From: an uncultured Aminicenantes bacterium
GTDB taxonomy: Bacteria; Acidobacteriota; Aminicenantia; UBA2199
NCBI GenBank assembly: GCA_965195285.1
Contig: CBDAFS010000015.1
Location: forward strand, 74,138 to 138,137
DNA length: 64,000 nt
Direction of reading: 5' to 3'
Of the stretch, positions 31,111 through 56,003 are shown piece by piece. The number at the start of each line of letters is the position of its first letter. Within the stretch, counting starts at the first letter, position 1. The position numbers and the translations under genes were made by a program. Under the pieces are notes generated by a model. The model had not been told where the DNA came from and did not search any database. It saw nothing but the letters and a program-made list of their open reading frames with translations.

Positions 31111-31220
31111 CTATTCCATAATCTGACCGGTCATGAGAGGTAAAAATCAGGGCTATGATGACCAAAGATCTTGTCGAAATCAAAAAAAAGACAGAAACCA
31201 TGCACCCGGATATTCGATCT

Positions 31221-33097: not shown

Positions 33098-33171
33098 TTT
33101 CTCTTTTATGTAAAAAAAAGAGAACCAAGCGAATTTCAATACTTCAAAAGACCGTCCCTTTTCATCTCTAT

Positions 33172-38666: not shown

Positions 38667-38787
38667 TGTTCTTGCTTGTATTATATAACAAGGCAGGTGA
38701 AAAATAAACAGACTTGCTGCTTCGCAAAAGAAAAAGAAAAGAAGAAGAAGAAGGGGTCAGAAGAAGGGGTCAAGTCTTTAATCAGAA

Positions 38788-39108
38788 GGGGTCAAGTCTT
38801 TAATTCACGTTTCGTGATAAGCCTCATTATTTCAATCACCTTATTCTCAACCGAGGAGTATTTATTAACATATGATAATGGTTAGGTTTCAAAGCAAACG
38901 CATATATATTAACAGACCATAATTCTGATGCCTGGGAAAGCAAGTCAATAAAAGTTTGGTAATCCTCATCATCTAAATAAATTATCTCCAATCTCCTTCC
39001 CCTGTTCATAACATGATACCAGGCTCCAGGATATTCAATTCTTAAAGGCCTGCTCATGACAATACAATATCATTATATTCTTGAAACGAAGTCCAAAGAC
39101 TTGACCCC
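38788..39108 (-). mobile_element. TIR-flanked Y1/HUH (RAYT-like) transposase element, internally deleted
   Basis: Inverted GGGGTCAAGTCTTT termini at 38788 and 39108, with extra tandem copies at 38753 and 38766. Confidence 0.75.
38792..39057 (-). pseudogene. REP-associated tyrosine (Y1) transposase pseudogene
   Basis: MSRPLRIEYPGAWYHVMNRG...PNHYHML (HUH motif) stops after 73 aa; another frame carries a plausible C-terminal tail VENKVIEIMRLITKRELKT* ending in the repeat. Confidence 0.8.
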
Positions 39109-39379
39109 TTTATTTATTATGTGATACGATTAGCAGGTGCAAAAGAGTAATAAAGTAAGGCACCGTCCCCGTAATTTAATTATTGATTGTAAACAGAGAT
39201 TTGACTTTCTTAAATTGTTAAATTAGTATAGTTAGTAAAAGCATAGTCTTCCATTTAGAGCTCTATTTTGGAGAGAATGTCATTATGAGTACAATTTTTT
39301 CCTTAAAAAAATCGCGGAGGTGAACGATGGGGTTATTTTTTGATTTTAACAAAACATTTAATGAAATGGGTAGGGCATT

Positions 39380-39504
39380 TGTGCGTGGTCACCAGGTTTG
39401 AGACTTTTCTGGTCATGAGGTTTGAGACTTTATTAAAGTTAATATTTTCAGAAAAGTTTTAAACCTTTTATCCCCAAAAGTTTAAAAACTGGTGTTCACG
39501 CACA
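39380..39504. mobile_element. 125-bp MITE with IS21-like ends
   Basis: TG...CA ends, 24/29 terminal inverted repeat, internal repeated GTTTGAGACTTT-type units; no target duplication. Confidence 0.6.
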
Positions 39505-39544
39505 ACAACATAAAGAAAATATTATGGATCTGTAAATTAAAAAA

Positions 39545-40702
39545 ATGGAAATCATCAATATGGCACAACTCTTAACAATCGGCGTGATTGGAAAAACACT
39601 AAAAGAAAACGAAAAACGAGTAGCCATTCATCCGGAACATATAAAAAGCATTCCAAAGGGATTACGAAAACAAATCACTTTTGAAGAAGGTTATGGATTG
39701 AGATTTGGCATGGATGATAACACTTTAGCCAAACTTACATCAGGGCGAGTTGCTTCCAGAGAAGAAATACTGAAAGGTTTTGATTGTGTGCTAATACCCA
39801 AACCTTTGGCAAAAGATTTGTCTCAGGTACGAGCAGGTGCAATTGTCTGGGGTTGGCCGCATTGTGTACAACAGAAAGAAATGACGCAAGTATCAATTGA
39901 AAGAAAATTAACCCTTATTGCCTGGGAAGAAATGTTTACATGGAGCCGAACAGGTGATAAAAATATGCATATTTTTTATAAAAACAATGAAATAGCAGGC
40001 TATGCCAGTGTAAATCATGCGATAAGTCTTATCGGAGTTGTCGGGAATTATGGAAAACCCCGAAAAGCAGTGGTACTCAGTTTTGGATCGGTGAGTCGAG
40101 GGGCAGTATATGCATTGCAAGGTCAAGGATCTCGAGATATCACGGTCTACACCTGTCGCGCATCAACAAATGTGAGTGATCAATTGCCTACAATATCTTT
40201 TAAACAAATGAAGAATGACGATTCAGGAAATTTGCTTGCAGTTGAATCTGACGGCAGTACTCGCCCATTTGCAGAAGCATTATCAGATGTGCAAATAATT
40301 GTTAATGGAACCCTTCAAGATGTTGACCATCCAAAAATGTTTGTACCTGAAGATGAGGCTGATAAATTGATGAAAGGCACTCTTATTATTGATATAAGCT
40401 GTGATGAGGGAATGGGTTTTTGGTGTGCCAAACCAACATCCTTTGAATACCCAATGTTTGAAGTGGCGGGTAAATTTTATTATTCAGTGGATCACAGTCC
40501 AAGTTATTATTGGAATTCTGCCTCATGGGAAATTTCAAAAGCATTACTTCCATTTTTACCCATAGTTATTGGGGGACCAAATAAATGGGAAAAGAACAAA
40601 ACCATTTCAAAAGCAATAGAAATATGCAATGGAGTAATTCAAAATCCGAAAATTCTTTCATTCCAAAATCGAGAGAAAGATTATCCACACCAATTTCGTT
40701 AA
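39545..40702 (+). CDS. N(5)-(carboxyethyl)ornithine synthase-like protein (AlaDh/PNT family)
   Basis: KENEKRVAIHP, WGWPHCVQ, NNEIAGY, IDISCD and YSVDHSPSYYW. Confidence 0.8.
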   Translation: MEIINMAQLLTIGVIGKTLKENEKRVAIHPEHIKSIPKGLRKQITFEEGYGLRFGMDDNTLAKLTSGRVASREEILKGFDCVLIPKPLAKDLSQVRAGAIVWGWPHCVQQKEMTQVSIERKLTLIAWEEMFTWSRTGDKNMHIFYKNNEIAGYASVNHAISLIGVVGNYGKPRKAVVLSFGSVSRGAVYALQGQGSRDITVYTCRASTNVSDQLPTISFKQMKNDDSGNLLAVESDGSTRPFAEALSDVQIIVNGTLQDVDHPKMFVPEDEADKLMKGTLIIDISCDEGMGFWCAKPTSFEYPMFEVAGKFYYSVDHSPSYYWNSASWEISKALLPFLPIVIGGPNKWEKNKTISKAIEICNGVIQNPKILSFQNREKDYPHQFR

Positions 40703-40799
40703 TGAATTCTATTACAATGAAAATTACATCGTAAAACATAGGGTTTAAGAAAACTTGTAAAACAAGAAAAGACATGGAAAAATTCAGGGAATATTTATA

Positions 40800-41621
40800 A
40801 TGGGCATAATAATTAATAAAGAACTTAACAGATTACGAACAATAATCGAAAAAAATAGAGTTGCATTTACTGATGTGGCTAATATTCAACAGCTACAAGT
40901 TGGATATGATGTTAGGGCAGACAATTATAGCAAAGAAAGCCAAAGCAGGCCGGATAAAGTACATCAGACTACTTTAACAGAGAGGTTCTTTCTTGAAGAA
41001 CTGAGAGGATTAATAAGCGGCAAAAGAATTGCTTATTTGGATGTTGGCTGTGCAGATGGCAGAAGAACTAAGAGGTTTTTCAACGAACTGGAGGATTTTT
41101 GCCAAATTGACAGACTTTGTGCAATCGACTACTCAAGAGAAATGGTTGCACAAGCACAAGGAATTCTGGGACATTCAAAAGTTGCATGGGGAAATATTAC
41201 TGATTTACCTTTTCAGGCTGAATTCAATGTAGTTACCTGTATGTATGGCGTTATTGGACATTTACCGGAGGATTTGATTCAACAAGCTATTAATAATCTA
41301 TCTCAGACTCTCGTAGATGGAGGCATTCTCTGCATAGATGTTCTTGGAAGAGATCAGAAGTTTCTTAAACAATACCGTTATAACGAAGTCAATAGTAATC
41401 ATGGGAAATATGTTGCATATTTTGTTAAAGTAGGAGGGAGTCCGTTAATGAATGGCAAAGACCAGCGAATAGTCTATACTATGCGGATGTTTACTCCGGG
41501 AGAAATAAAAACTTACGCTAAGAATACAGGTCTTAGACCAGTAGCAGATAAAGAAATTTATCCGGTTGAAAGAGGGGTTAATGAAATGGAATATGCATTA
41601 GTACTTAAAAAAGAGTGCTAA
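40800..41621 (+). CDS. Class I SAM-dependent methyltransferase
   Basis: LDVGCADG, IDYSREM, FNVVTCM and LVDGG. Confidence 0.8.
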   Translation: MGIIINKELNRLRTIIEKNRVAFTDVANIQQLQVGYDVRADNYSKESQSRPDKVHQTTLTERFFLEELRGLISGKRIAYLDVGCADGRRTKRFFNELEDFCQIDRLCAIDYSREMVAQAQGILGHSKVAWGNITDLPFQAEFNVVTCMYGVIGHLPEDLIQQAINNLSQTLVDGGILCIDVLGRDQKFLKQYRYNEVNSNHGKYVAYFVKVGGSPLMNGKDQRIVYTMRMFTPGEIKTYAKNTGLRPVADKEIYPVERGVNEMEYALVLKKEC

Positions 41622-41697
41622 CAAATCTATTTGTTTGCTTCGATAGAATATCCATACCAATTTCGTTAATGAATTTTATGACAAAAAATTTTACATT

Positions 41698-41749
41698 GTA
41701 TAACACTGTGTATAGCGCATTAAAACGCGCCATACACTAACCGTTAGGC
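41698..41749 (+). other. Integron attC-like site
   Basis: GTATAAC...GTGTATAGCGC-loop-GCGCCATACAC...GTTAGGC: R''/R' boxes with an internal palindrome, followed by an ORF start. Confidence 0.55.
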
Positions 41750-41792
41750 GAAATATTATTCGGTCATTACGGAGCTACATATTTATAGAGAG

Positions 41793-42032
41793 ATGTATAT
41801 GAAAATTTTAAAGCCGCACTTAGATTCAATTTTTGATATTGCTGGTTCAGACGAAAATGCACTCACAAAATCATTTGGCGTAATTCTGAGAAAAGATAAG
41901 ACATTACTGAGTAATTTTTTGTCGGTTGCTATGAAAAAATCTTACTCAATATCAAAGCAGTTATTTGACAGAACTCATTTTTATTTTGAAAAAAGTTATT
42001 CTGGGGGGCGAACTGATTATCTTCTCCGTTGA
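41793..42032 (+). pseudogene. N-terminal fragment of a probable PD-(D/E)XK nuclease-like cassette gene
   Basis: ENALTKSF...FEK..GGRTD motif, broken at about 42017 by an IS3 remnant. Confidence 0.5.
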
Positions 42033-42115
42033 GTACTTCTTTCTGCTCATTCTGCCTCCTCAGATCCAGATAAATACTAACATAAAAACTGGATCAGTTT
42101 ATGGGGGGCAGGTGT
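42012..42115 (-). mobile_element. IS3-family left-end remnant
   Basis: Minus strand CCTGCCCCCC end motif, GGAGG RBS and an orfA start MSRKKYSTEKIIS (ATG at 42050). Confidence 0.55.
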
Positions 42116-42140
42116 ACGCATAATCGGGGTCAGGTCTAAA

Positions 42141-43784
42141 CAGGCTGTTGCCCAAATAAGGTTTTTTATATTTAAGGGTTGAGGGAAAATATTCCGAAAA
42201 GGCCTATAATATTGATTAATTAAGCATTTCATGGTATAATATTGTTTTTTGAGGTGTTTAAAAATGATGGGTAACGAAGAGAGTCAAGAGGACAAATTCA
42301 TTTACAATTTTCGTCTCAGTAAACGTATACCTTTGGATCATCCTTTAAGAAAGATAAGGGATATGCTTGATCTTGATTTTCTGTATGATCTTCTAAAGAG
42401 AAAGTACGGAACCAGGGGCAATGTATCAGTACCGCCTCCGGTATTGATGAAGATGATGTTGTTGTTGGTATTTTACAATGTTCGTTCGGAGCGAGAGTTG
42501 ATGCGAACCATACCTATGAGATTAGATTGGATTTGGTTTTTAGGATATGACCTGGACGATGATATTCCGCATCATAGTGTATTATCCAAAGCCAGGAAGC
42601 GTTGGGGAGAGGCAGTATTTAAAGAGTTATTCGAACGAATACTGCTTCAGGCTGCCGAATCCGGTTTGGTAGATGGGGGTAAGCTTTTTGCGGATTCTTC
42701 ATTGGTTGAGGCAGATGCATCGAGGAATTCGGTAAAAAGGATAAGCAATATGAAATTAGCCTCCACTTATAAGGAGTTGTTAAACAGGTTGGATGAAGGA
42801 GAGTCAGAGGATGAAGAGGAGCCGGGGGATAAAGGGAATGAAGGAGGCCGATACAGTAAAGTAAATAAGATACATAAGAGTGACACCGATCCTGAAGCAA
42901 CCATAGTTCGTCAGCAGGGGAGTTCAGATCTTTATTATAAAGTTCACCGCAGTGTAGATGAGAGGTGTGAAGTGATAACCTGTTGTCATACGACAACCGG
43001 AATAGTGAATGAGGCTCATGTTCTGAAAGATCTGATAGATGGTCATAAGGCGATTTTAGGTTGTGATCCGGGAATAATTGTGGCAGACAGCAAATATGGT
43101 ACAAAGGAGAATTTTGTTAAATTAAAGAAGAGGGGGATCAAGACTCATATCAAAGATTTATCCATGGCCCAGAAAGAAGGAGGGTCAAGGAAAGGGAAAT
43201 TTTCGAAGGAAGATTTTGAATATAACATTGAGGGGGATTATTTTGTATGTCCAGGTGGAGAGAAATTAAAAAAGAGGTCCTATAATCCCAATCGTGGTTG
43301 GTACGAATACAAAGCGAGTAAGAATAAATGTGATGTATGCCGCCTTCGATTACAGTGCACAGCTGACAAAAATGGTCGTAGTTTGAAGAGGCACCCGGAG
43401 GAAAAATATTTACAGTTGGCCAAACAGGATGCCCATAGTATTGGAGCGAAAGCTGATTTAAAGAAGAGGCAGCACTTAATGGAAAGGAGCTTTGCGACCG
43501 GTATCCGTTATGGCTATAAAAGAGCCAGGTGGAGGAATATGTGGCGAGTATCGATTCAGCAGTATTTAATAGCAACTGTCCAGAACCTTCAGAAGATTTT
43601 CATTTATGGAGGGGATTTAAGACATAATAAGGCAATTTATCTTAATTTGTTACAAAAATTTAGCTTAAAAAATTGTATATTTGGAATATTAACAAAAATT
43701 AATCTCAATCTCAGTGTTTTAAATTTAAAAGTATAGTAAATTTATAAATGTGGTGTTTAAGATTATGGTTTAGGCAACAGCCTG
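42141..43784 (+). mobile_element. IS1182-family insertion sequence (1644 bp)
   Basis: Inverted repeats CAGGCTGTTGCC(C/T)AAA (15/16) and a 4-bp target duplication TAAA. Confidence 0.85.
42264..43736 (+). CDS. IS1182-family DDE transposase
   Basis: IPLDHPLRKI, RSERELM, PHHSVLS, DSSLVEADAS, TDPEA, ADSKYG, CPGG and C..C...QC. Confidence 0.88.
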   Translation: MMGNEESQEDKFIYNFRLSKRIPLDHPLRKIRDMLDLDFLYDLLKRKYGTRGNVSVPPPVLMKMMLLLVFYNVRSERELMRTIPMRLDWIWFLGYDLDDDIPHHSVLSKARKRWGEAVFKELFERILLQAAESGLVDGGKLFADSSLVEADASRNSVKRISNMKLASTYKELLNRLDEGESEDEEEPGDKGNEGGRYSKVNKIHKSDTDPEATIVRQQGSSDLYYKVHRSVDERCEVITCCHTTTGIVNEAHVLKDLIDGHKAILGCDPGIIVADSKYGTKENFVKLKKRGIKTHIKDLSMAQKEGGSRKGKFSKEDFEYNIEGDYFVCPGGEKLKKRSYNPNRGWYEYKASKNKCDVCRLRLQCTADKNGRSLKRHPEEKYLQLAKQDAHSIGAKADLKKRQHLMERSFATGIRYGYKRARWRNMWRVSIQQYLIATVQNLQKIFIYGGDLRHNKAIYLNLLQKFSLKNCIFGILTKINLNLSVLNLKV

Positions 43785-44194
43785 TAAAGAATAAAGAAAT
43801 CGATTGTCCAAGAATATGGTTTTCCTACAAATCAACAGTACTTTTTTCAACTAAAAAGTAATTGATTTTTAAATAAAACATTTCTACATTTGTGTGCGTC
43901 GTCCCCCTTTTTCAGCATTTTAAATATTCCTATTTAATTGGGATGTTAAATTTGACGGGAGCGAAAGGGATGAGTTGGAAAAATAAAAAATTGTAGAAAG
44001 AGTGAACAAGGAAATTCGACATCGAGTATTGGAATGAAAAACATTACAGACAAATCTTTATTCTTTAGACTTGACCCCTAAGATTTTTTTTTTGAATTAG
44101 ATGGATGGTGTTTTGTGGGGCTGATATTGTTATTTCGTAACCACTCTATCAAAGACTAGATGCATATCTTTGCTGAAGTAGGATAGGGGGTTTA

Positions 44195-44323
44195 TCAATA
44201 TGGGCCAGCTGGTCCCTGATTTATATTTTTTTCTTTTTTCTGTTTTCGTTTTTCTTTTTGGGTGAGTTTGCCCTTTTTTTGATGTTCTCGTTTGCTTTTA
44301 TCTTTTTTCCCTTTATCGCCCAT
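44195..44323 (-). CDS. Small Lys-rich basic protein (42 aa), not in the ORF track
   Basis: MGDKGKKDKSKREHQKKGKLTQKEKRKQKKEKNINQGPAGPY* with an AAGGGGGA RBS. Confidence 0.55.
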   Translation of the reverse strand: MGDKGKKDKSKREHQKKGKLTQKEKRKQKKEKNINQGPAGPY

Positions 44324-44475
44324 ATTTATTCCCCCTTACCTGTTTAATTTTATTAATAATTTTAATATATAACCATATGAATTTTATAAAATCGGGGACA
44401 GATTGTCAATTTATTAATTTTTTTAAAATACCTTATCTTGCTAACTCCACCTCAAATCCCTATATAGGCATAAAA

Positions 44476-45492
44476 CTAAACTAACTTGTTTAAATATCTT
44501 TCAGTGAACTTTATTATATTATTCATCATGTCAACTGCCTCAACCGGATATTTTCCCACAGCTGATTCAGCCGAAAGCATAACAAAGTTACTCCCGTCTA
44601 TTATAGCGTTGGCCACATCGCTTACCTCCGCGCGGGTAGGGATGCGGTTTTCGGTCATACTCTCCAGCATCTGCGTCGCGGTTATAACAAACTTTCCGGC
44701 GCGCCTGCATTTTTTGATAATTGTCTTTTGTATAACAGGGATTTCGTAAACTGGCAACGACACCCCCATATCTCCGCGCGCTATCATGATGCCGTCCGAA
44801 ACCTTGATTATTTCATCAATATTTTTTATACCATCCCGATTCTCTATTTTGGCAATAACCCGGCACCGCGAACCTCCTCCAAGTACCTTTCTTACATCCA
44901 TGATATCCTTTTTCGTGCACACGAATGACTGTGCGATATATTCAACACCTTGCTTTTCACAAAAGAGTATATCCTTTATATCCTTCTGGCTTATACTACC
45001 AAATTCCAGCCGTGCCTCCGGGATATTTACGCCCTTATGTCCTTTAAGCAAGCCGCCGAATACCACTTTGACCTTTAAGCTGTTTTTAACCCGGGCAATC
45101 ACTTCTAAAACGATATTTCCGTCATCTATGAATATTTGGTGGCCGTTCTTAATAGGGTGTAACGGGCATTGATAATCAAAAGGTATTTTTTTATGCGATC
45201 CATTTGTTTTTTGCTGGGTAAGCCACACTATCTGGTCTTTTTTAAGCAAAATTGGAGCAATAAGATCACCTACCCTTATGCGATGGCCTTGCAAGTCACC
45301 AAGAAGCTTAACGCTCCTATGATATTTTTTATTTAAAAGCCGAATGAGTCCTATTCTATGAAGCAATTCTTGCGGCTTGCTGTGGGAAAAATTCAGACGC
45401 CCAACATCCATGCCGGCAAGCATCATTTTTTTAAGCACCGTCTCGCTCGACGACACTGGGCCAAGCGTACAGATTATCTTAGTCTTAACCAT
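44476..45492 (-). CDS. pyk: Pyruvate kinase, short form lacking the C-terminal domain
   Basis: [49 protein letters not shown] and MLSAESA; ends at 338 aa. Confidence 0.88.
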
Positions 45493-46033
45493 AAAATTTA
45501 TTCATATTACATTTCACTCTCGTCAGCTCCATAACTAAACCCTCGGGCGATTGGACCACGTTGCTCGCTTGACAAACTGAAACGTTTCAACCTGCCGTCG
45601 TCTTCTATTAAGGCTTCCGAATAAAACCGACTTTCCGGATAGTTCTGGATGAAATCTTCATACGCCTGAATGGAATTGTTTTTAGTCACAATAGGAAAAT
45701 CGTTTTTCCATCCTGTTAAAAAAATATTAGAGAATTGGCTATCCATTGTCAAGCAATTGAGTGAAATATGTTTCATGGAAAGGACCGGGTGCAGAAATGT
45801 AATTTTAATGAGAAACCTTTTGGATTTTTACCTGGCTGCCTTATACAATAAAAGAGAAAAACAAAAAATGTAGAAAATTAAATTTTCTACACAAATCCGG
45901 AATATTTCAAGTAATATTGAAATGCAAAACCTGATCCCACTCATTCCATTAATGTATAAGTGGAGATTTTTTGGGAACCCGGACGATACTGGAACCGTTA
46001 TAAGTTTATTATGCAGGAATTAAGGAGAATCAG

Positions 46034-47059
46034 ATGAAGAAAATTCTAATACTATCATTTATTTTAATTTCGTCATTATTAATCAATATTTATGCATCGG
46101 AACCGGTGGAACTGCCGGAGCTTACCCGACCGTCAATGTTCATTATTAATTATGACCGGATATATGTCCTGGAAGAGGCAACGGTTCGCGTCTATTCCCT
46201 TGAAGATTTTACATTAATAAAAAAGTTCGGCAGGGCAGGGGAAGGGCCCAAAGAGTTCAAGTACAGCGGTGGAGACGGCAGGCCGTTGTCGATGAGTTTT
46301 TTTAAGGGGCAGTTGATCGTGAACAGTGTGATGAAGATGTCTTTTTTTGATAAGGATGGGGTTTATATCACGGAAACAAAGGTGGCTGTGGACAGACTCC
46401 TCTTTCCCATTAACGGCAAGTATCTGGGTATCGGCCCCACTGCAACTGAAAAAAATGCTCAATGCATCGGATTTACCATCTATGACGGTCAGTTTAAATC
46501 ACCACAAGTTATATTCATAAGCGATGTTGAAATTAACAATCCAACCAGATTTGTGCTGCCCATTACAAGCTTCACCTACAAACCCGTCTATAAAGAAAAG
46601 ATATTTGTGAATTCAAGCTCCGATGATTTCAGGATTAATGTATTTAATAGTGAAGGGAAAAAAGAATATACCATAGAGAAAAAATATCCGAAAATTAAAA
46701 TACCGGGTCATTTCAGAACTGAAGCGTTGGCGTTCTTCAAAAAAAGCCCGGTGTTCAAAAGTGCCTTTGAATATCTGAAAAAGATTTTGATTATAAGAGA
46801 ATATTATCCTCCAATCAGGGACCTTCAAATCGTTGATGATCACCTATACGTTCTTACCTTCAAACGAAAGGGTGACCTCTGGGAATTAATTAAACTTGAT
46901 CTGAAAGGTGATGAGAAAGGCCGATTATTCATACCTCTGACTGAATATGAATATTTCACCTGGTATCCGGTCTTCTACTCTGTTTATAAGGGAAAGGTTT
47001 ATACACTGGTGGAAGATGAGGAAGACGAAGTCTGGAAGATTTACATAAACACATTTTAA
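46034..47059 (+). CDS. Secreted 6-bladed beta-propeller (NHL-like) protein
   Basis: Signal peptide and FGRAGEGPKEF motif; AAGGAG RBS. Confidence 0.65.
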   Translation: MKKILILSFILISSLLINIYASEPVELPELTRPSMFIINYDRIYVLEEATVRVYSLEDFTLIKKFGRAGEGPKEFKYSGGDGRPLSMSFFKGQLIVNSVMKMSFFDKDGVYITETKVAVDRLLFPINGKYLGIGPTATEKNAQCIGFTIYDGQFKSPQVIFISDVEINNPTRFVLPITSFTYKPVYKEKIFVNSSSDDFRINVFNSEGKKEYTIEKKYPKIKIPGHFRTEALAFFKKSPVFKSAFEYLKKILIIREYYPPIRDLQIVDDHLYVLTFKRKGDLWELIKLDLKGDEKGRLFIPLTEYEYFTWYPVFYSVYKGKVYTLVEDEEDEVWKIYINTF

Positions 47060-47203
47060 ACAAAAAAATCCCAATGTCCTAACGGATCGTGCAAAATACA
47101 AGACCTGACCCTATTAAACTTCATAGATCAATAATACTTTTTTCAAATAAAAAGTAATTGATTTTTAAATACAGCATTTCTACAATTTGTGTGCACCGTC
47201 ACC

Positions 47204-47359
47204 CTTGTCATAGACTGCGGAGATGCAATGCTTCTTCTTGGAGAGATTGGTGATGTTAGGGCAATCGACCCAATAATGAATTTTGACGCGAACGTTGGGC
47301 AATTCCTAACATACAAGAACGCCGCTCTTGACAAGCTTCGGAAGGCTAAGCATAGTTAG
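47204..47359 (+). pseudogene. C-terminal fragment of a HEAT-repeat protein
   Basis: LVIDCGDAMLLLGEIGDVRAIDPI...AALDKL*, starting right after a GCACCGTCACCC repeat with no start codon region. Confidence 0.45.
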
Positions 47360-47471
47360 AAGAGGGTTTGCGTGAAAGAGTTTCCCTTATTATTGGGAAT
47401 GGGGGGATTTGACAAAGAAAAATCATTTCTATAACATTTTATTTTGGTAACATAAAAAAGGAGAATGGAGA

Positions 47472-48440
47472 ATGTTAACCAGAAAATGTCTTAATTGCGG
47501 TGTCCCATTGGCACTCAGAGAAGACCAGGTCGAATTAGAAGTAGAGATGCGTAAAGTAAATCCTGAATTTGAATTGCCTGTCTGGTGTGCAATCTGTGAA
47601 AGAAAGTTAAAGAAAAAAAAATTGAATATTGTCAATTTTATTTATGATGTCTTATCTATTTTAATTGCATTGGGTATTCTTGCATTAATTATTAACATCG
47701 GTGAAAAGAGTCCCAATCTCTTTACAAAAGTGATTTTAAACCTTAATTTACTTTCCTACATGACGCTTAATATCGGTGTAGGATTTTTATCCAGTTTGCT
47801 TTTTGTGGTTTTGCTTGAGAATTACAATCCGAGAGGACATGCTATTGATAAATCACATCTATGGGTGCACAAAGATACAAAAACCAAACAAAGTGATGCC
47901 ACCAAGCGTGATGTATATGAACATTATCATGGCTATGGCAGCTGGGAAAAAAAGTCAAAAGCTGAATGGAAAATTATCCATATAATTGGACTCATTTTTG
48001 CCGGATGTGGAGGTTTTTTTGTTGCGCTTTTGAAAGAAAAAGCCTATAACATACCGGTTGTATTGATAGCGGGTGTTATTGGTGTGTTGATTTACATCCT
48101 TATTCACAAGTTATTGGATATTGAATTTTTAACCCATGATAATTCCAGTAACTCGCTTCAGCCTGTTAGCATGGATTTTTCCAATTTATTTAAAGGGCAA
48201 ACTTCAGGTTCGATGTTATATTACGGGATAGCATTTTTCATCATATTTGTTTTCAGTATTGTGGTCTCAATATATTGGGTGATATATTTTTTCATATTAC
48301 ATAAAGAAAGTACAATATTATTAAATCCTCCCCTGATACAGCTATATACCATCTCGCTGAGATTGATGGGGATATTAATACTCTTTTTATTGGGGGAATG
48401 GTTGTTGTTAAAGCAAAAAGAAAGAAAAGCCAAGAGTTAA
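47472..48440 (+). CDS. Multi-pass membrane protein with an N-terminal zinc ribbon
   Basis: CLNCG...CAIC and about six TM segments; GGAG RBS. Confidence 0.6.
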   Translation: MLTRKCLNCGVPLALREDQVELEVEMRKVNPEFELPVWCAICERKLKKKKLNIVNFIYDVLSILIALGILALIINIGEKSPNLFTKVILNLNLLSYMTLNIGVGFLSSLLFVVLLENYNPRGHAIDKSHLWVHKDTKTKQSDATKRDVYEHYHGYGSWEKKSKAEWKIIHIIGLIFAGCGGFFVALLKEKAYNIPVVLIAGVIGVLIYILIHKLLDIEFLTHDNSSNSLQPVSMDFSNLFKGQTSGSMLYYGIAFFIIFVFSIVVSIYWVIYFFILHKESTILLNPPLIQLYTISLRLMGILILFLLGEWLLLKQKERKAKS

Positions 48441-48549
48441 TAGAAAAAAGGATTGAAAAAAAGCTATTAGGCTTAAGAAAAATCACTCGACTTTTTTTCT
48501 ACCCCTTCTCGCAAGAGACCGGAAATGGTATCAAATCTAAAAGTTAACC

Positions 48550-48752
48550 GGGGTCAGGTCTAAAGAATAAAGAAATCGATTGCACACCGCATTTTAAATA
48601 TTCCTATTTAATTGGGATGTTATATTTGACGGGGGCGAAAGGGATGTGTTGTAAAAATAAAGAATAGTAGAAAGAGTGAACAAGGATATTCGACATCGAG
48701 TATTGGAATGAAAAACATTACAGACAAATCTTTATTCTTTAGACCTGACCCC
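48550..48752. repeat. GGGG-TIR MITE copy 2 (intact, 203 bp)
   Basis: Perfect 24-bp terminal inverted repeat GGGGTCAGGTCTAAAGAATAAAGA / TCTTTATTCTTTAGACCTGACCCC. Confidence 0.85.
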
Positions 48753-48766
48753 CAAGATGTTCAAAA

Positions 48767-51730
48767 CTATTTATTACCTTCCAGCTCTTTCACCCTTTTT
48801 CTGGCATCTTCAACCAGGGGCTGGAACTGTTGATCGCAATCTTTCCATAAATCGATAAATTTATTGTAGTTTTCAATGGCCTTGCCTTTCCAGCCTTTTT
48901 GTTCATATATTTTCCCCAGCATGTAAAAGCTTTTAGCATAGATATCTCCAAAGATGAGCCTGCCGGTGGTTAGAGATAGGATCTTTTCATACTGTTCCTG
49001 AGCTTTTTCAAAATCTCCCTTTATATAAAAAGCCGCGGCCAGGGGTTCGATAAACAAAGCATGCTGATCTGCTGAGTACATCTTATGTTGATGGGGCAGC
49101 AAAGTTATGGCTTTTTTAAAATATTCTACAGCTTTTGAAGAATTGTTTCTTTTTGATTCGATCATTCCCATAAGATGAAAATAAAATCTTGTACGCTTTT
49201 GGTTCATTCCTTTTTTGATCAATTCCCTGAGTTCATCTGCGGTTTTTTGGGCTAAATCCAGTGATCTTTTAGCAGCCAACACAACTCCCTTATAATACAA
49301 TATCGATGTTTGATTCCCCAGGTTCTTTCCTTTGACTGCCCTGTCCCATTCAATTTTGCACTCTTTTAATGCCTCACTGTGATTTCCTGATTTGAGATAT
49401 TTGTAAATTAAAGATCTCTTGAAGATTAAATGCCAGGCCCACTGACCGGACCTTTTGGCCAGTTTGAGTCCCAATCTTACCTGGTTTAGCGATTCATTGA
49501 ATTTTCCTGATAATAAAAACAAAGAGGATAACATCAACCTGCCATACAATTTATTTGGTGTTCCACCGGATTCAAGAAGTTTCCGGTATTCCCGTTCCGA
49601 TTTAATCATATCTCCTTTATAAATATAAATATCACCCTTTAAACGGAAATCATAAAAAGAATCAGGGTTTATAGAAGATGCCTTGTCTGCTTCAGCAATG
49701 GCAAGTTCATATTTGTTCTGGAGAATATAAATATGGGCCAGTCGGCGGCGAATAAAGGCATTGTCCGAAATATTATTGAGATAAAAACTTAGTAATTCCT
49801 CTGCCCTGTCATATAAACCCTTTGCTTCATATGCTTCTGCTAAAGTATAATATGACGTTATACTTTCAGCACTTAAAGAGATTTTGAATTTTTCTATGGC
49901 CTTGTCCCACTCTTCCAAATCGCTGTATAAGAGCCCCAACTGGTGGTGGCCGGATAAATCTTCAGGGTAAAATTGCAGCAATTTTTTATAGGCTGCCATG
50001 GCTTTTTTATCGTTGTTTTCCACATTTAAATAGAACTCAGCCTGGTTTCGGTAACGCTCTCTATCTGATATCCTGTCACTCAATTCAAAGGATTTCTTTA
50101 CATATCTTTTCATAGCATTAAAATCACCTATATTATAGGAAGCCATTGCCAGTGACCGGTAAGCAGTGGCAAACCTGGGATCAATGGCTATAGCTTTCTT
50201 GTAATAGGGGATAGCTTTTCGGTAATTTCCGTTTTGATATAATTTTCCAGCTGTAATGTAGTTTTTATATGCTTCAAGAGACGAGGTGGTAATGGTCCCG
50301 ATATTCCTGTCGATATCTTCAGAAATTACCTGCTCGGAAAGATCGAAATTCAATTTGATCTTTTTTGTGACCTCATCCACCTTTGATAAGACATTTTTTT
50401 CTCCCCTGGACTCTACGGTTAATGAGTTAATAATGTCACCTGAATCGGCTTTATAAATCATTATGTTGATACGAAAATTTTCACCGATTTTGATATAGTT
50501 TCCCCTGATTATGTGATTTGTTTTCCCACGGGCAGCGACTTTTAATAAATCCTCGGTAGAGTATTTTTTTGATTCCAGTAGATTCAATTTTTTCAGGATA
50601 CCGAAGAGTCTGTCTCCTGGTAAAACATTGATCAGTTTTGACTGGGATAAGTCTGTGATAAGTAACTCTGCAAGAGCGCTGCGCCAGTAATCCAGTTTCT
50701 CATCTCCTGTGTTGTTCTCAAAGTATACAATGGCAATTGAGGGTTTTTCCCCTGGTTTAATTACAGGTGTTTCTGGTTTCGGTTTTCCTTTGAATATAAA
50801 ATAACCGGCAATGATGATAACCGCAATAAAAATACTTCCCAGAATCAAAACTTTTTGAGAGGCTTTCAGGGTGATCTCCGGACTGGTTTTTTTTCTGGAA
50901 ACGCTTACATCCGGCGTTGAGTCCTTTTTCAGTTTTTCCAGGTCAACCATCATATCATCCACATGCTGGTACCTTTCAGAAGGATCTTTGACCAGGGCCT
51001 TGTTAATAATCCGCTCCAGTTCCTGGGGAACTCCGGTGCGTATAGCAGTGACAGGCTCCGGATCCTCGTTTAAAATGGCATATACAACTGCCTGTTCATA
51101 ATCCCCTTTAAAAGGTAATTGACCCGTAACCATTTCATAGAGCAATACGCCCAGGGACCAGATATCAGTCCTGTGATTCACCTTCTTGCCCATGGACTGT
51201 TCGGGTGACATGTAGGATGTGGTTCCCACCGTGGTGCCGACTTTGGTTAATTTGGATTTTCCCTTTAGCTTGGCCAGACCGAAATCCATGATCTTCACCT
51301 GGCCTTTTTCATTTATCATGATATTAGCACTTTTGATATCTCTGTGAACAATCCCCTTCTCATGTGCTTCCTGCAGGCCTTCTGCAATCTGAAATGCAAT
51401 TTTTAAGGATTCATCTATTTTTAAAGGACCAGATTCGATCTTTTCTTTTAGGTTCTGGCCTTCAATATAACTCATGGCTATAAAAATCTGGTCTTCCTGT
51501 TCATCTATCTCATAAATTGAGCAAATATTCTGGTGTTCCAGAGCAGCCGAAGCTTGAGCTTCTATAAAAAACCTTTCCTTGGAATCCTTATCTCTGGTAA
51601 ACTCGGGAGGCAGAAATTTCAGGGCAACTGTACGTTTTAGTTTTGTATCCTCAGCCTTATAAACAACTCCCATTCCACCTTCACCGAGTTTCTCAAGGAT
51701 TTTGTAGTGGGAAATGGTTTTTCCGATCAT
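48767..51730 (-). CDS. Ser/Thr protein kinase with TM, TolB_N-like and TPR domains
   Basis: LGEGGMGVVY, VALKFL, HRDIKSAN, DFGLAK and YMSPEQ, then IAIVYFENNTGD and TPR repeats. Confidence 0.9.
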   Translation of the reverse strand: MIGKTISHYKILEKLGEGGMGVVYKAEDTKLKRTVALKFLPPEFTRDKDSKERFFIEAQASAALEHQNICSIYEIDEQEDQIFIAMSYIEGQNLKEKIESGPLKIDESLKIAFQIAEGLQEAHEKGIVHRDIKSANIMINEKGQVKIMDFGLAKLKGKSKLTKVGTTVGTTSYMSPEQSMGKKVNHRTDIWSLGVLLYEMVTGQLPFKGDYEQAVVYAILNEDPEPVTAIRTGVPQELERIINKALVKDPSERYQHVDDMMVDLEKLKKDSTPDVSVSRKKTSPEITLKASQKVLILGSIFIAVIIIAGYFIFKGKPKPETPVIKPGEKPSIAIVYFENNTGDEKLDYWRSALAELLITDLSQSKLINVLPGDRLFGILKKLNLLESKKYSTEDLLKVAARGKTNHIIRGNYIKIGENFRINIMIYKADSGDIINSLTVESRGEKNVLSKVDEVTKKIKLNFDLSEQVISEDIDRNIGTITTSSLEAYKNYITAGKLYQNGNYRKAIPYYKKAIAIDPRFATAYRSLAMASYNIGDFNAMKRYVKKSFELSDRISDRERYRNQAEFYLNVENNDKKAMAAYKKLLQFYPEDLSGHHQLGLLYSDLEEWDKAIEKFKISLSAESITSYYTLAEAYEAKGLYDRAEELLSFYLNNISDNAFIRRRLAHIYILQNKYELAIAEADKASSINPDSFYDFRLKGDIYIYKGDMIKSEREYRKLLESGGTPNKLYGRLMLSSLFLLSGKFNESLNQVRLGLKLAKRSGQWAWHLIFKRSLIYKYLKSGNHSEALKECKIEWDRAVKGKNLGNQTSILYYKGVVLAAKRSLDLAQKTADELRELIKKGMNQKRTRFYFHLMGMIESKRNNSSKAVEYFKKAITLLPHQHKMYSADQHALFIEPLAAAFYIKGDFEKAQEQYEKILSLTTGRLIFGDIYAKSFYMLGKIYEQKGWKGKAIENYNKFIDLWKDCDQQFQPLVEDARKRVKELEGNK

Positions 51731-52101
51731 GTATCATCTCTCCGATGAATTTTATAGCATATAGATATTTTATTTTCAATAAAAGGGGATTAACTTTTGA
51801 TTTTAATTTATCATAGAAAAAAAATGTCCCATGAAGGAATCAAATCCCTTCAATTCTGGCCAGATCCGGCCTATCCACCACCTCCTCCCCTGATCGCCCA
51901 ATCCCGCAAAATGCACACTATCTGCCTCACCTTTGGGACCGGTGGCATCCGGTGGGGAATGGGGGGGGTGGGTATTCCTATACAGTATAGTGCAATTCTT
52001 CATGAATTTCACAAGTATATTGAACTATAACATTTTCTTGACTTTCATTTTAAAACTCCCTAAAATATCTTCGTGTTTATATTTGAAATGGAGGAGGAGA
52101 A

Positions 52102-52698
52102 ATGAAATCAACACTTAGAGCTTTACTCTATTTTATTTTTCTTTTAGGATTGATTTATCATCTGGGTTGTTCAACGACCGGTGAGGTGGATAATCAATAT
52201 ATTCTCACCGTGAGTTTGGCGAATGGAGTTTCCGGAATTCCGGCAACAGGTACATATGTGTATGATGAAAATCAAACCGTTACGTATAGTTATACCCTTG
52301 AGGTCGGATTTAGAAATCTGGTGGTTTTCCTGAATGATGTGGCCATTGCCGATTCTGGAATTATTACCATGGATAATAACCATGTACTTAGGGTGGTGGC
52401 GGATCCGCCATTCGATGTTACCGGCGAATGGCATGGTTATTTAGAGGGGGGGTTGGCAAGAGAATTCTGGGTGACTTTTTTTGAAGATAATTATTGCATC
52501 GGCATACTGGAAAATTATTCCGGTGAATTCGATCAAAGCAATTACCAGATTTCAGACGGGCATATTTCTATCGATCTGGATAGTGGATCGCGTGATTTTT
52601 TGATGGAGGGAACTATCGAAAACGACAATCGGATGAGTGGTACCTGGTATTCATATTTTTATGGAACGAACGGAACCTGGTGGTTGGAAAGAGATTAG
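52102..52698 (+). CDS. Putative lipoprotein
   Basis: Hydrophobic signal ending in a HLGC lipobox; GGAGGAGGAG RBS. Confidence 0.65.
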   Translation: MKSTLRALLYFIFLLGLIYHLGCSTTGEVDNQYILTVSLANGVSGIPATGTYVYDENQTVTYSYTLEVGFRNLVVFLNDVAIADSGIITMDNNHVLRVVADPPFDVTGEWHGYLEGGLAREFWVTFFEDNYCIGILENYSGEFDQSNYQISDGHISIDLDSGSRDFLMEGTIENDNRMSGTWYSYFYGTNGTWWLERD

Positions 52699-52773
52699 GT
52701 TCATGTGTTGGGTCTGGTCTTTCGAAATCAATTTCATAAGAATCATGTCATCAGTATTGAGGGATTCGATATT

Positions 52774-53025
52774 ATGAAAATTACCAAACAAGATGTGGTT
52801 TGGGCATATCGGCTTATGCTGGACAGAGATCCGGAGAGAGAAGAGGTTATTGAGAACTATATTAAAATATGCAATACGCCGGAGCAACTCAGGGATATAA
52901 TATTATCCTCGGAAGAATTCAATGAAAGAAATCCGACTTTTGCCCAAAACTATATCAAGATTCCATTTCCGCCGGAAGAGCTGATGCACTTGGTGGCTGG
53001 ATTGTATGACTGGGGTCAGGTCTAA
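52774..53025 (+). pseudogene. Truncated gene (DUF4214-like N-terminus, probably a methyltransferase) cut by a GGGG-TIR
   Basis: AYRLMLDRDPE...ILSSEEF, then PFPPEELMHLVAG; the last codons and stop come from GGGGTCAGGTCTAA at 53012. Confidence 0.55.
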
Positions 53026-53125
53026 AGAATAAAGAAATCAATTGTTTCCGTCATTTTTAAGGATCCACATTTAAATGGGATGATTTGTTTATTTGAAGGG
53101 TCGAAAAGGAGAAATTGTAAAAAAA
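53012..53125 (+). repeat. GGGG-TIR MITE copy 3 (left end with diverged body)
   Basis: GGGGTCAGGTCTAAAGAATAAAGAAATC followed by a degenerate version of the MITE interior. Confidence 0.7.
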
Positions 53126-53573
53126 ATGATCCAATTATCTTAATATTATATGTTGTAATGTAAAATTTGTCCCCAGTCTATGTAAACTATACAAAAATGC
53201 CCAAAATTGCAAAAAAGGTCAAATAAGATTAAACTCAAGAACTCAAGCACCGTCCCCATCAGTAGTAACCTGGTTTAGAATGTATGGAGTGTTTTTAGGT
53301 TAATATATGTAAGTGTCAAATAAAGTACATCTTCACAAGATTACCTTATGCCAAAACTTCTATTGATTGTGAGGCCCTCATGGCACAAGAGAGTTTACGG
53401 CGGAAAAAGGTAGCAACCAAAGTAATATCAATGGTTTCGGGAGTATTTAAGCCTACAATAAACCGCACTATCCATAGTTAGATATGGTAAACTCGATTTT
53501 AGGCCTGGAAACCCTTTATTATCAACGGTTTCAAATGTGGTTTTTGGGAGTTTGATATGAAAATTAAAATTCT

Positions 53574-54896
53574 CTATAAACTATCCGGGAATTTTTCTTC
53601 CTTAGGTTCAGTTTTAATGTTTTTCAGTTCATTCATTATTGCTAAGGTTTCCCTATATTCTTTGGCTTCAGCTACTTTGGTAAATTCTATCTCCTCGTGC
53701 TCAGATCTTACTTTTTTTTCGATATCTTCTAATTCAACTTGAAAGAATTCTTTCCTAAAATTAACCTGATTCAATCGAGTTGCTTTAAATTCCTGGTGTA
53801 ATATAGCTTCCAATTCTGGAGCGTTTTCAGAATAAATCATCGCATGAACATCAAATGCAAATGGTACTGAAGCATCACCAAGTTCTTTCACACGATCTAA
53901 GGGTTCCAGTCTCCTGGTCAATCCAATTTTATAAACCCTTTCCCCAAAAGATCCAATATTTGAGATAATATACACATGACCAGATTTGGTCAGTTGAGCT
54001 CTGGAAATAGCTCGCTCCTTTTTCTCTTGTGCATCTTCCAATGCTTGTTGCATTTCAATTAGTTTTTTATTTAGGGATTCCATTTCCTCATCCTTAGCCA
54101 TGGTCATTTTTGCTTTTACTTCAGCAAGAGCTTTCTGATATTTTCTCTCATCATCCTCTGCCTCTTTTTTTGCTTGCTCAATTTCTTTTTGAACTTTTTC
54201 CTCTTCCCTCATTTGTTTTCTAATTTTTCGTTGTTCCTCTTTTTCTTCATATTTTTTTTCTTGATATTCATGCGCCAAATGTAGTTCTTTGATTTTTAAG
54301 TCCAAGTAGGAATCCGTTATATATATTCTATTTGGTTCACCCAATTTATTGATAGTTTCAAAAGCCTTTTTAATTCTCTCTTCCATTTTAATTATATTAT
54401 TCCATTTAACCTTTAATACTGTAGCATCGCATTCTCCATTAAAGGCTCTTAACATTAATTTCATGCTTCTGTTTGTCATCTGTCTGCCTTTGACCTTGCT
54501 TCCCTCAACAGTCCACTCAGTATTACAAATAATCGCATCTTTTTCTTTTATGAGAGATTTTTGTTCTTTAAGGATCATATCCAATTCCTCTTTATACTTT
54601 TCTGAGGTGTCAAAATCAAAATGGGGATGATAAACCCCATATGTAGTAAATTCGTATTCTTCTTGAATTATACTTAGGTCCAAAAGAAATTTATCGTATA
54701 TTTCTTTTTTAACTTTGTAGTCAGATTTCATTTCTTCAAATTCTTTAGTTTTTAAATCAATTTCTGCATCAATATCAATTATTCCTTTGTATTTTTTGTA
54801 CAGGTAATCGTGTTTCTGTTTAAATTTAAAAAATAGAAATATAAATCCAAATAGTAAAACAATAGAGATAATGAGAAAAATGAGATAATTGTCCAT
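53574..54896 (-). CDS. DUF4041 / T5orf172 (MUG113, GIY-YIG-like) domain protein
   Basis: N-terminal TM, LMLRAFNGEC, coiled coil, GHVYIISNIGSFGE.VYKIGLTRR, ELGDASVPF.FDVH and RKEFF. Confidence 0.88.
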   Translation of the reverse strand: MDNYLIFLIISIVLLFGFIFLFFKFKQKHDYLYKKYKGIIDIDAEIDLKTKEFEEMKSDYKVKKEIYDKFLLDLSIIQEEYEFTTYGVYHPHFDFDTSEKYKEELDMILKEQKSLIKEKDAIICNTEWTVEGSKVKGRQMTNRSMKLMLRAFNGECDATVLKVKWNNIIKMEERIKKAFETINKLGEPNRIYITDSYLDLKIKELHLAHEYQEKKYEEKEEQRKIRKQMREEEKVQKEIEQAKKEAEDDERKYQKALAEVKAKMTMAKDEEMESLNKKLIEMQQALEDAQEKKERAISRAQLTKSGHVYIISNIGSFGERVYKIGLTRRLEPLDRVKELGDASVPFAFDVHAMIYSENAPELEAILHQEFKATRLNQVNFRKEFFQVELEDIEKKVRSEHEEIEFTKVAEAKEYRETLAIMNELKNIKTEPKEEKFPDSL

Positions 54897-55408
54897 AACT
54901 GCCTCCTGTAATAATTTTAAAACAGGTTATATATCATTCCCAAAAAACTTTAGTTAAAGTTTAAACAGGTGATATTCAAAAGTCAAATAAATCGATTCTG
55001 AAGCTCGTTAATAAATTCAAGAAAATAAAGAAATTACCTTAATATATAGGCTGTTTTGACAGTTTTATAATAAAATCCATGATCCAAACCCTTACTAAGG
55101 TATACAAAGTTTGATTTTGGGTCTGGAAACCCTCTATTATCAACACTTTGAAATGAGGTTTTTGGGTATTTGAGAACGTTAGGGGGTGTTGGTGTTTTTT
55201 ATTGATATTATTACAAAGTTGTGATTGAAAAATTTCAATCAATGGGAATACGGATGGCCTCCACCAATTCGCCTGGCCATGAACTATTGAAAGAGAAGAG
55301 GGACGGTGCTTTGAAACTTGGAAATTTGATGCCCAATTTCATGTAGAATGCAAACTTAACAAATTGTTCTAATATTTGAGTTCAAAATAGGGAAGGGAAA
55401 TAAAAAAA

Positions 55409-55481
55409 TGACCCCTAAAGGAATCGAACCTTTAACCTATTGATTAAGAGTCAATTGCTCTGCCAATTGAGCTAAGGGGCC
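55409..55481 (-). tRNA. tRNA-Lys(CTT)
   Basis: GGCCCCT TA GCTC AATTGGCA GAGC A ATTGA CT-CTT-AA TCAAT AGGTT AAAGG TTCGATT CCTTT AGGGGTC A; complete cloverleaf, CCA not encoded. Confidence 0.95.
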
Positions 55482-55530
55482 ATCTTAAGGGGTAATTTAG
55501 CATATTTTGGGGCGGGTGTCAATTAGGGAA

Positions 55531-55837: not shown

Positions 55838-56003
55838 AAGTTGGTGTTTTCCCTTAAATCTAACCTGAACTGATAACTCTCTCACTTTCTCAATTCAATC
55901 TTAATCTCAGGTTTGCCCTGAATTTCCCGATATATTTGGAAATATTTCTTGACAATCAATATTATTTATAATATTAATGTATTTAAGCAGAGGGGTGTTT
56001 CGT

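Follow-up and report, generated by a model that had tools for sequence, protein, structure and literature searches.

Why are short repeats that begin with GGGG crowded between unrelated genes in one part of a bacterial genome? The question is raised by the window analysed here, the whole stretch of 64 kb that makes up the last part of contig C15 in the assembly of an uncultured Aminicenantes bacterium (G000; 3.28 Mb, 62 contigs, 42% G+C). The repeats lie between hslR and a tRNA-Lys gene. A preliminary description of the window linked them to RAYT-like HUH transposases whose genes are flanked by terminal inverted repeats (TIRs) starting with GGGG, and proposed that they are sites where such an enzyme cuts and joins foreign DNA in the manner of an integron. 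The link to the transposases is correct and is already in print, in the parts of the two papers that were available to us, under the names TIRYT and TIRtron (PMC3733652; PMC6006769). We conclude that the GGGG-headed repeats are very probably the TIRs of TIRtrons, and that the window holds non-autonomous derivatives, ends and debris of these elements. The inventory comprises miniature inverted-repeat transposable elements (MITEs) of 203 and 163 bp, a further MITE with an insertion sequence (IS) of the IS1182 family inside it, one internally deleted TIRtron and six or more ends, solo or half, from several families.

The tips of the repeats are of two types, T (GGGGTCA..) and A (GGGGACGGTGC, with GCACCGTCCCC as its complement), the A tip belonging to a larger kind of end. 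The 12-mer GGGGTCARGTCT forms the outermost part of an inverted repeat of 24 nt, GGGGTCAGGTCTAAAGAATAAAGA. It has nine matches in the window (eight exact, one with a single mismatch) against 0.48 expected, a count that was reached in none of 100 shuffles. All of them fall within 38766-53023, and the rest of the 64 kb has no copy at up to one mismatch. The tips in the window are as follows, with GGGGTCARGTCT and its one-mismatch copy taken from a motif scan, and the partial copy and the two GCACCGTCCCC-type motifs from reading the sequence.

38766, 38788, 42126, 48550 and 53012, plus strand: exact copies of GGGGTCARGTCT
39097-39108, 44067-44078 and 48741-48752, minus strand: exact copies of GGGGTCARGTCT
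47101-47112, minus strand: one-mismatch copy AGGGTCAGGTCT
38753-38760: partial copy GGGGTCAG
39160-39170 and 53247-53257: GCACCGTCCCC-type motif
43892-43907 (GTGTGCGTCGTCCCCC) and 47189-47204 (..GCACCGTCACCC): variants of the GCACCGTCCCC type
44394, with the complement at 53167-53176: GGGGACA

Every coordinate listed in the preliminary description is present in the sequence. Its remark that the motifs were not noticed in the flanks stands for GGGGTCARGTCT. A further A-type tip lies outside its range at 55299, and there is degenerate debris at 31197-31227 and at 33146-33159, the latter a possible, degenerate tip that matches the C9 type in 13 of 14 letters.

In the whole genome there are 36 exact copies of GGGGTCARGTCT. 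Strict tips number 43 of the T type and 56 of the A type, compared with about 2.3 and 4.7 in mononucleotide shuffles. The great majority (87 of 99) lie outside open reading frames (ORFs) of at least 120 aa and 12 lie inside them, while such ORFs cover 88% of the genome. Seven strict tips come within 300 nt of the end of a contig where 1.1 would be expected, as is usual for multi-copy repeats in an assembly. The genome-wide count proposed in the preliminary description thus gives a distribution that is far from even, and the densest cluster of the genome is the one in the window. It has 11 strict tips in 14.5 kb where 0.44 are expected (Poisson 1.9e-12; 4e-10 after correction for 226 windows), and the next four clusters have six each. 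From hslR to tRNA-Lys, seven of the 12 gene junctions carry an element by our own reading, degenerate copies counted, in agreement with the earlier view that the repeats mark gene junctions.

The elements that would supply such ends are found elsewhere in the genome. A genome-wide tblastn search with the transposase gave 21 loci, 14 of which are near full length (at least 840 nt), with a mutual identity of about 30-60%. The intact Y1 transposase that the preliminary description had suggested looking for is therefore present. These loci are single-gene units of about 1 kb between the same ends, for example C47:23077-24135, whose 24-nt ends are those of the MITEs, and C14:33136-34171. Intact ORFs of 300-324 aa were found in seven of the eight elements examined. 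Both inverted ends are present at 12 of the 15 loci listed (on C8, C9, C12, C14, C15, C21, C26, C31, C47, C49, C50 and C61), and the ends of the listed loci begin with GGGG[AT]C, with the few variants GGTGAC and AGGGAC. The incomplete or variant loci are those on C46 (a CCCT variant at one end), C27 (5' end GAGTGAC) and C30 (no 3' end in the listed flank). All three proteins tested, from C47, C14 and C15, match Pfam Y1_Tnp (E 2e-14, 7e-15 and 4e-11), and the motifs NHYH and YIHLNP/YVLKNP are visible. Bac_DnaA_C is found in two T-type proteins (32.5 and 37.4 bits, cut-off 31.5), and the C-terminal half of the A type has no Pfam hit. The window itself has no intact TIRYT, only a 67-codon remnant.

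About 100 nt of the main MITE family align with the 3' end of the C47 element. Of 41 related genomes, counting G000, 33 have TIRYT homologues. In G003, a genome of the same genus, a TIRtron of the C47 type (95% identical) lies at a different locus, with the similarity beginning 6 nt before GGGG, and the G000 site orthologous to that locus holds a decayed TIRtron of another family. Thus, TIRtrons travel as GGGG..CCCC units and land more than once in the same intergenic sites.

Some TIRtrons and ends beyond the window have unusual forms. The TIRtrons at C15:51303-52500 and C8:11256-12110 are flanked by direct duplications of about 95 nt and 45 nt, each found only twice in the genome. Duplications of such length are out of the ordinary for an IS of any kind and would not be expected from a Y1 enzyme. 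At C31:81037-81085, two T-type ends placed tip-outward (GGGGTCAGGTCTTGCATT..AATGCAAGACCTGACCCC) form a perfect hairpin of 49 nt, and at C26:1128-1168 an A-type end abuts a T-type hairpin. Both of these minimal end forms are REP-like in shape (REP, repetitive extragenic palindromic sequence).

How well do these elements fit the published class? RAYT-like genes flanked by TIRs were named TIRYTs, and the elements TIRtrons, by Di Nocera, De Gregorio & Rocco (2013, PMC3733652), and the available parts of that paper describe many TIRs as sharing GGGGWSAS and the ends as moderately abundant dispersed families that occur as singles, dimers and groups. Quentin et al. (2018, PMC6006769, likewise available in part) place 20 of 26 TIRYTs in TnpA-Y1 subclass 2.1, with NH[YF]H, Y[IV]HLNP and a DnaA-C-like or helix-turn-helix (HTH) tail. 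Judged by sequence, the elements here are of the TIRtron class, with every tested feature fitting save the A-type tip and the A-type tail. GGGGTCAG fits the GGGGWSAS consensus, and GGGGTCAA departs from it at the last base. Features shared with the two descriptions, as far as these were available, are the Y1/HUH gene of about 300-324 aa between inverted repeats starting with GGGGWS, the DnaA-C-like HTH tail in some proteins, the dispersed singles, dimers and groups, and the presence of several TIRYT genes per genome. Measured against the same partial sources, the present genome differs in having at least 14 near-full-length lineages, mutually 30-60% identical, within 3.3 Mb. It also has two tip types, of which GGGGTCA fits the consensus and the A type GGGGACGG departs from it at position 7, and clear MITE derivatives that include chimeras with unlike ends, together with stuttered tips and a one-sided conserved MITE flank, which are treated below. 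Some of these differences may already be described in the parts of PMC3733652 and PMC6006769 that were not available to us.

Two related systems fit less well. RAYT/REPIN systems (Bertels & Rainey 2011, PMC3116915; Bertels et al. 2017, PMC5581495) likewise have a related Y1 transposase with its own repeat on either side. In both cases this repeat is spread in the form of inverted doublets that fold into a long hairpin, and each repeat family appears to vary together with its enzyme. However, the NCBIfam RAYT model NF047646 gives 71.0 and 69.1 bits against a cut-off of 80. In place of GTAG-headed REP hairpins there are repeats starting with GGGG, which are TIRs of 24-30 nt around a body of 160-200 nt. 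Many transposase lineages are present, compared with 1-3 per genome, and copies number from single digits to tens rather than hundreds. With the IS200/IS605 elements (IS608, ISDra2), the elements here share the superfamily (Pfam Y1_Tnp) and show no evident target duplication at MITE or TIRtron ends. They differ in having true, in part perfect, TIRs and not subterminal hairpins, and in a transposase that is twice as long and has an HTH tail, and the model NF033573 gives only 21.6 and 17.1 bits against a cut-off of 55.

Within the window, the ends and tips assemble into the following elements.

31197-31227, minus strand: 31-nt remnant of the 5' end of a TIRYT gene, directly after the stop of a DEAD-box helicase gene (30 of 31 letters match C14:34081-34111, E 1.4e-8)
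38753-38787, plus strand: tip "stutter", partial end copies (GGGGTCAG; GGGGTCAAGTCTTTAATCAG), each with an AAG flank, preceding a full end
38788-39108, minus strand: internally deleted TIRtron of 321 bp, T-type on either side and 77-78% identical to the two ends of the 1039-bp element C46:20630-21668
39141-39170, minus strand: solo A-type end GGGGACGGTGCCTTACTTTATTAC, with the cognate TIRtron at C49:48790-49769
42126-42140, plus strand: split MITE, first 15 nt of the left end
42141-43784, plus strand: IS1182-family IS of 1644 bp inside the MITE end, with an ORF at 42249-43736 (495 aa), 16-nt inverted ends and a TAAA duplication
43785-44078, plus strand: rest of the split MITE, with a nested insert of about 100 nt (about 43808-43907), which has an A-like tip of its own at its end
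44394-44428, plus strand: solo GGGGACAGATTGTCAATTTATTAATT repeat, with copies on C24, C12, C40 and C45
47085-47112, minus strand: solo T-type end (AGGGTCAGGTCTTGTATTTTGCAC), like the GGGGTCAGGTCTTGCATTGC family; an 8.3-kb strain-variable block begins 5 nt rightward
47127-47204, minus strand: unit of 78 nt with an A-like tip (..GTGTGCACCGTCACCC) at its end, 89% identical to 43831-43909
48550-48752, minus strand: intact 203-bp MITE with perfect 24-nt inverted ends GGGGTCAGGTCTAAAGAATAAAGA, about 100 nt of it homologous to the 3' end of the TIRtron C47:23077-24135
53012-53174, plus strand: 163-bp MITE whose left end is the same and whose right end (GGGGACAAATTTTACATTAC) has diverged, 80% identical to C55:112099-112263
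53229-53257, minus strand: solo A-type end GGGGACGGTGCTTGAGTTCTTGAGTTT, of the family of C31:40707 and C62:83184
55299-55330, plus strand: solo A-type end AGGGACGGTGCTTTGAAACTTGGAAA, with family copies on C20, C45, C53 and C62

The element at 38788-39108 retains about 67-72 N-terminal codons of a transposase (38842-39057, minus strand; tblastn 75% over 67 aa). The 203-bp MITE is predicted to fold, as single-stranded DNA (ssDNA), into one long hairpin (-32.6 kcal/mol, z -6.5). MITEs may be chimeric, with unlike ends.

The insertion that splits one MITE belongs to the IS1182 family, as its transposase scores 302.9 bits with NF033551 (cut-off 270) and its ends match at 15 of 16 nt between TAAA flanks. 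It is single-copy in G000. In the contigs of run X13, which come from a near-identical strain (0-6 differences per contig piece), it forms a contig of its own with a depth 1.7 times that of the flanks, and an IS-free joint connects 42136 to 43785 with four shared letters. A copy in genome G002 (C264, 1-341; 89% identical) lies at the same position in a MITE end, after GGGGTCAGGTCTAAA, with a different MITE variant and different flanking genes. To judge from these two copies, either the IS targets this end or the whole composite may have moved.

Three features bear on the mechanism. First, the ends have a common anatomy in which the conserved tip is followed by a short direct repeat that is specific to the family (TAAAGA-A-TAAAGA, TTGACA-N-TTGACA, TTGTA-N-TTGTA or TTAC-N-TTAC). 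These direct repeats are plausible candidates for the binding sites of the HTH tail. Second, in the main MITE family, one end abuts AT[GA]A[TC]C in nine listed ends, two of which are probably one locus, and the other flank is variable. The target of IS608, TTAC, is likewise a flank conserved on one side only. By analogy, the MITE flank recalls this one-sided target. Third, a second tip fragment in the same orientation is found within the outward 40 nt at 10 of 42 T tips and 6 of 56 A tips, compared with 0.4% and 1.8% of random 40-mers. The usual form of this stutter is a flank, a tip of 6-7 nt, the same flank and the full end. The number of stutter copies differs between strains at 38718-38783, where X13 is about 41 nt shorter.

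We propose the following explanation. TIRtrons are elements of about 1 kb with a single gene, which encodes the TIRYT, a Y1/HUH tyrosine transposase of the RAYT-like kind. Cognate enzymes from loci elsewhere in the genome would bind the ends in the window, plausibly via the HTH tail, and would cut ssDNA at the tips, as the IS200/IS605 and TnpA-REP enzymes do. The copies that lack a gene would be moved in trans, with C47:23077-24135 as the candidate for the main MITE family. Copies may pile up here because the DNA from hslR to tRNA-Lys is strain-variable, A+T-rich and insertion-tolerant, and also because one copy may often insert next to or within another. The gene mosaic would then reflect ordinary turnover at a tRNA-linked hot spot together with repeat-associated rearrangement, which would explain it better than capture at the repeats. 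The genome is unusual material for studying this class, with its 14 or so near-intact, diverged elements that have their own ends, the matched gene-less derivatives, the chimeric MITEs, the one-sided flank and the stutter. The class was named in 2013, and the available parts of PMC3733652 and PMC6006769 contain no transposition assay and no target rule for TIRYTs or TIRtrons. Natural strain variants are present in public sediment metagenomes. For annotation, the lesson is that GGGG-headed intergenic repeats in such genomes are to be read as transposon ends that mark insertion-tolerant, rearrangement-prone DNA, and not as signs of gene capture.

The strain-variable character of this DNA is seen at the tRNA gene, which is the only Rfam match at 30-60 kb of the window.

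55408-55482, minus strand: tRNA-Lys(CTT), with the 3' end facing the repeat-rich region
33063-33097, plus strand: 35-nt direct copy (33 of 35 letters) of the tRNA-Lys 3' end plus seven A, like an attachment (att) site, matching 55400-55434 at a distance of 22.3 kb

The 35-nt copy looks like the att scar of an old integration. A domain scan for recombinases in 24 ORFs (17 + 7) between 29.5 and 56.4 kb found no integrase between the tRNA gene and this copy. In run X13, one contig joins 47117 to 55405, and 33 nt of the tRNA-Lys end are repeated. The depth of X13 is zero over 47616-48216 and 49419-50019 and about 31 on the flanks, so 8.3 kb from a HEAT-repeat gene stump to the DUF4041 gene is missing in that strain. 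The missing block (47118-55404) holds the HEAT stump, a 322-aa ORF, a MITE, a gene for a Ser/Thr kinase with tetratricopeptide repeats (kinase-TPR), ORFs of 198 and 106 aa, a second MITE and the DUF4041/T5orf172 gene. Together, the 8.3-kb absence and the tRNA-end copy point to ordinary turnover of a tRNA-linked island. As in such islands, the region adjoins a tRNA 3' end with a direct copy 22.3 kb away, it has a strain-variable block, and part of its content is low in G+C (0.33-0.40 against 0.42 for the genome). It differs from them in that no integrase was found in the ORFs scanned and in that the span includes hslR, pyk and a 341-aa gene, which are conserved in the genus. For these two reasons it is at best an old, decayed or composite island.

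Two candidate observations from this region were set aside. The 3' end of the tRNA gene contains GGGGTCA and could mimic a tip, and this was rejected as evidence because the 7-mer occurs 409 times in the genome, about the chance frequency (some 400 by a uniform-base estimate). The joints in runs X3 and X4, and the joint 53257 to 55300 in X13, have short sides and less than 95% likeness, and were treated as cross-mapped repeat copies from other places or organisms.

Several points weigh against the interpretation of the repeats as TIRtron ends whose derivatives move in trans. The RAYT model scores below its cut-off, as given above. In the available parts of PMC3733652 and PMC6006769, TIRYT transposition has no experimental demonstration, so that mobilisation in trans and the single-strand mechanism are argued by analogy. 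Presence or absence of a MITE was not seen directly as a polymorphism in the strains compared, and the only clean empty-site joint is that of the IS1182-family element in X13. The X13 joint from 47117 to 55405 has a short side of 30 letters and up to 43 unplaced letters, and the depth gaps are the stronger evidence. The clustering of unlike ends is modest with strict motifs: of the 43 T tips, five lie no more than 200 nt from an A tip, while 500 controls give a mean of 1.4 and a maximum of six. Finally, several breakpoints of gene order coincide with ends, so that a causal role of the ends in rearrangement is possible, if on the unlikely side.

The breakpoints were defined against G001, the same-genus genome used as synteny comparator (370 contigs; the genomes of the genus are in 270-520). 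G017 matches hslR only and so could not serve for synteny. The G001 order runs from hslR through the 341-aa gene to the DEAD-box helicase gene, and the latter two genes share 4 nt. In G000, a distance of 7.3 kb separates hslR from the 341-aa gene, a solo tip lies 42 nt after the stop of the 341-aa gene, and the helicase gene is at 31221-32900 with the TIRYT remnant after its stop. The break upstream of the helicase gene has the tRNA-end copy and the possible tip, and the matching place in G001 has a GGGGAC tip. The repeats could therefore be the cause of the junctions, if they promoted deletions, inversions and translocations, as dispersed homology or as sites nicked by TIRYTs, with no capture of genes. 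Debris lies at four of the five breakpoints that can be defined (the 38753-39170 cluster, the 47101-47112 tip, the 31197-31227 remnant and the possible tip at 33146-33159), a HEAT stump begins at a tip, and the TIRtrons at one orthologous site differ between G003 and G000. Some of the repeats lie at real breakpoints to this extent, but the breakpoint between hslR and a sigma factor gene (38261/38265) has no repeat. This is a small, post hoc sample with a single comparator of 370 contigs, and the orientations at 47101 and 31197 are unfit for a single split element. In addition, insertions accumulate in DNA that is already variable, so that co-location does not show cause. We regard this explanation as tentative, possible and on the unlikely side.

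A second alternative is that the dispersed ends are domesticated REP-like host elements, kept for a function as terminators, mRNA stabilisers or protein-binding sites. The position of 87 of 99 tips outside long ORFs, often between convergent genes, would suit such roles, as would the long predicted hairpin of the MITE (z -6.5), and the REP/REPIN systems described in print are kept vertically. Domesticated repeats are hard to reconcile with families of few copies, many of them truncated, nested or interrupted, with about 14 distinct near-intact transposase lineages in place of one or two single-copy RAYTs, and with a placement that differs between G000 and G003. We consider domestication very unlikely.

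There remains the idea that foreign genes are assembled at the repeats, for which the preliminary description had pointed to two genes broken by them. The first is the following.

47205-47356, plus strand: start-less remnant of a HEAT-repeat gene with one repeat unit, abutting the tip at 47204 (HEAT_PBS E 0.0018)

The best 150 of 1989 matches to this HEAT family are 295-2543 aa long with 5-15 units, and the piece has no match among 40 relatives. The single-unit stump does begin at the tip, as described. The second is the ORF at 52705-53025, which enters the MITE end by 14 nt and takes its last four codons and its stop (TAA) from the MITE at 53012-53174. This ORF is an orphan with no homologue in the 40 relatives, and in a collection of 5.8 billion proteins there was no match of greater length and, among lengths close to its own, none but the ORF itself. 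Its truncation by the repeat therefore cannot be shown, and of this claim only the origin of the stop holds.

On a bolder reading, TIRYT ends would be more than parasites of the region, namely active HUH cut-and-join points at which gene blocks are gained and lost, the 8.3-kb block having been joined at the tip at 47112 and the stutters (16 of 98 ends) being scars of cleavage and religation. If this were true, TIRtrons would be an ssDNA route of gene-block exchange. We consider it highly improbable.

The integron-like reading, in which an HUH enzyme captures foreign segments and strings them together at GGGG repeats, has several observations on its side. Seven of the 12 junctions carry an end, the HEAT remnant starts exactly at a tip, and the variable block begins 5 nt past the tip at 47112. 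A ceo-like gene has no orthologue in the 40 relatives (best match 25% identity), and the flank-plus-tip stutters (10 of 42 T tips, 6 of 56 of the A type) point to cleavage that recurred there. The ceo-like gene and the orphan ORF at 52705-53025 are examples of strain-specific genes. Against this, the ends pair into closed small elements and the genes lie outside them, not inside. The region has no intact TIRYT and no integrase, and in the 24 ORFs scanned the IS1182 transposase is the sole recombinase. A number of the genes are not of foreign origin: the genome has no pyruvate kinase gene besides pyk, which has an 82% orthologue in G001, and pyk, the 341-aa gene and the kinase gene have same-genus counterparts at 76-87% nucleotide identity (76% for the 341-aa gene, 87% for the kinase). 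The 341-aa, 198-aa and kinase families are multi-copy here (11, at least 13 and many loci) and occur together on C32. No segment between repeats was seen elsewhere with the same repeat boundaries, and the right edge of the variable block is the tRNA end and not a repeat. The likeness to integrons is a superficial picture of short repeats between unrelated genes: there is no IntI-type recombinase among the ORFs scanned, and complete small elements lie in either orientation, paired as MITEs, in place of one attC per cassette. Gene capture is not supported by these observations, and we consider it very improbable.

Some of the genes in the region have features of their own. The 341-aa gene (46034-47059), the kinase-TPR gene (48767-51730) and the 198-aa gene (52102-52698, with a lipoprotein-like signal) have a joint counterpart at the C32 locus 24114-29054. 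Paralogues of the 198-aa gene lie beside two other MITEs on C53.

The pyk gene (44476-45492, minus strand) encodes 338 aa, which cover profile positions 2-339 of 476. No PK_C domain was found in the assembly at E <= 1, while the controls were positive in 14 of 14 genomes. The G001 orthologue ends near the same residue with a different tail, and the pyruvate kinases of other relatives are 466-513 aa long. A recent truncation of pyk by a repeat was considered and dropped because the G001 orthologue stops at about the same residue. Upstream of pyk, an 89-aa ORF has a 105-nt deletion in run X13 (45527-45631, with one T instead), and this ORF is therefore probably free of strong constraint.

Further repeats of other kinds are present in the window. 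A 73-nt direct repeat (79%; 40675-40747 and 41642-41714) brackets a methyltransferase gene and includes the last codons of the ceo-like ORF, and an 84-nt direct repeat (77%; 53472-53555 and 55090-55173) brackets the DUF4041/T5orf172 gene. A tie of these two repeats to TIRtrons was rejected, as their edges have no GGGG ends. Beyond the tRNA gene there is a family of repeats of about 250 nt, 85-90% identical, at 55622-55870 and about 58275-58523 and also at C42:12758-12928. This family is unrelated to the GGGG ends and contains internal short repeats of the AATGACAAGTT type.

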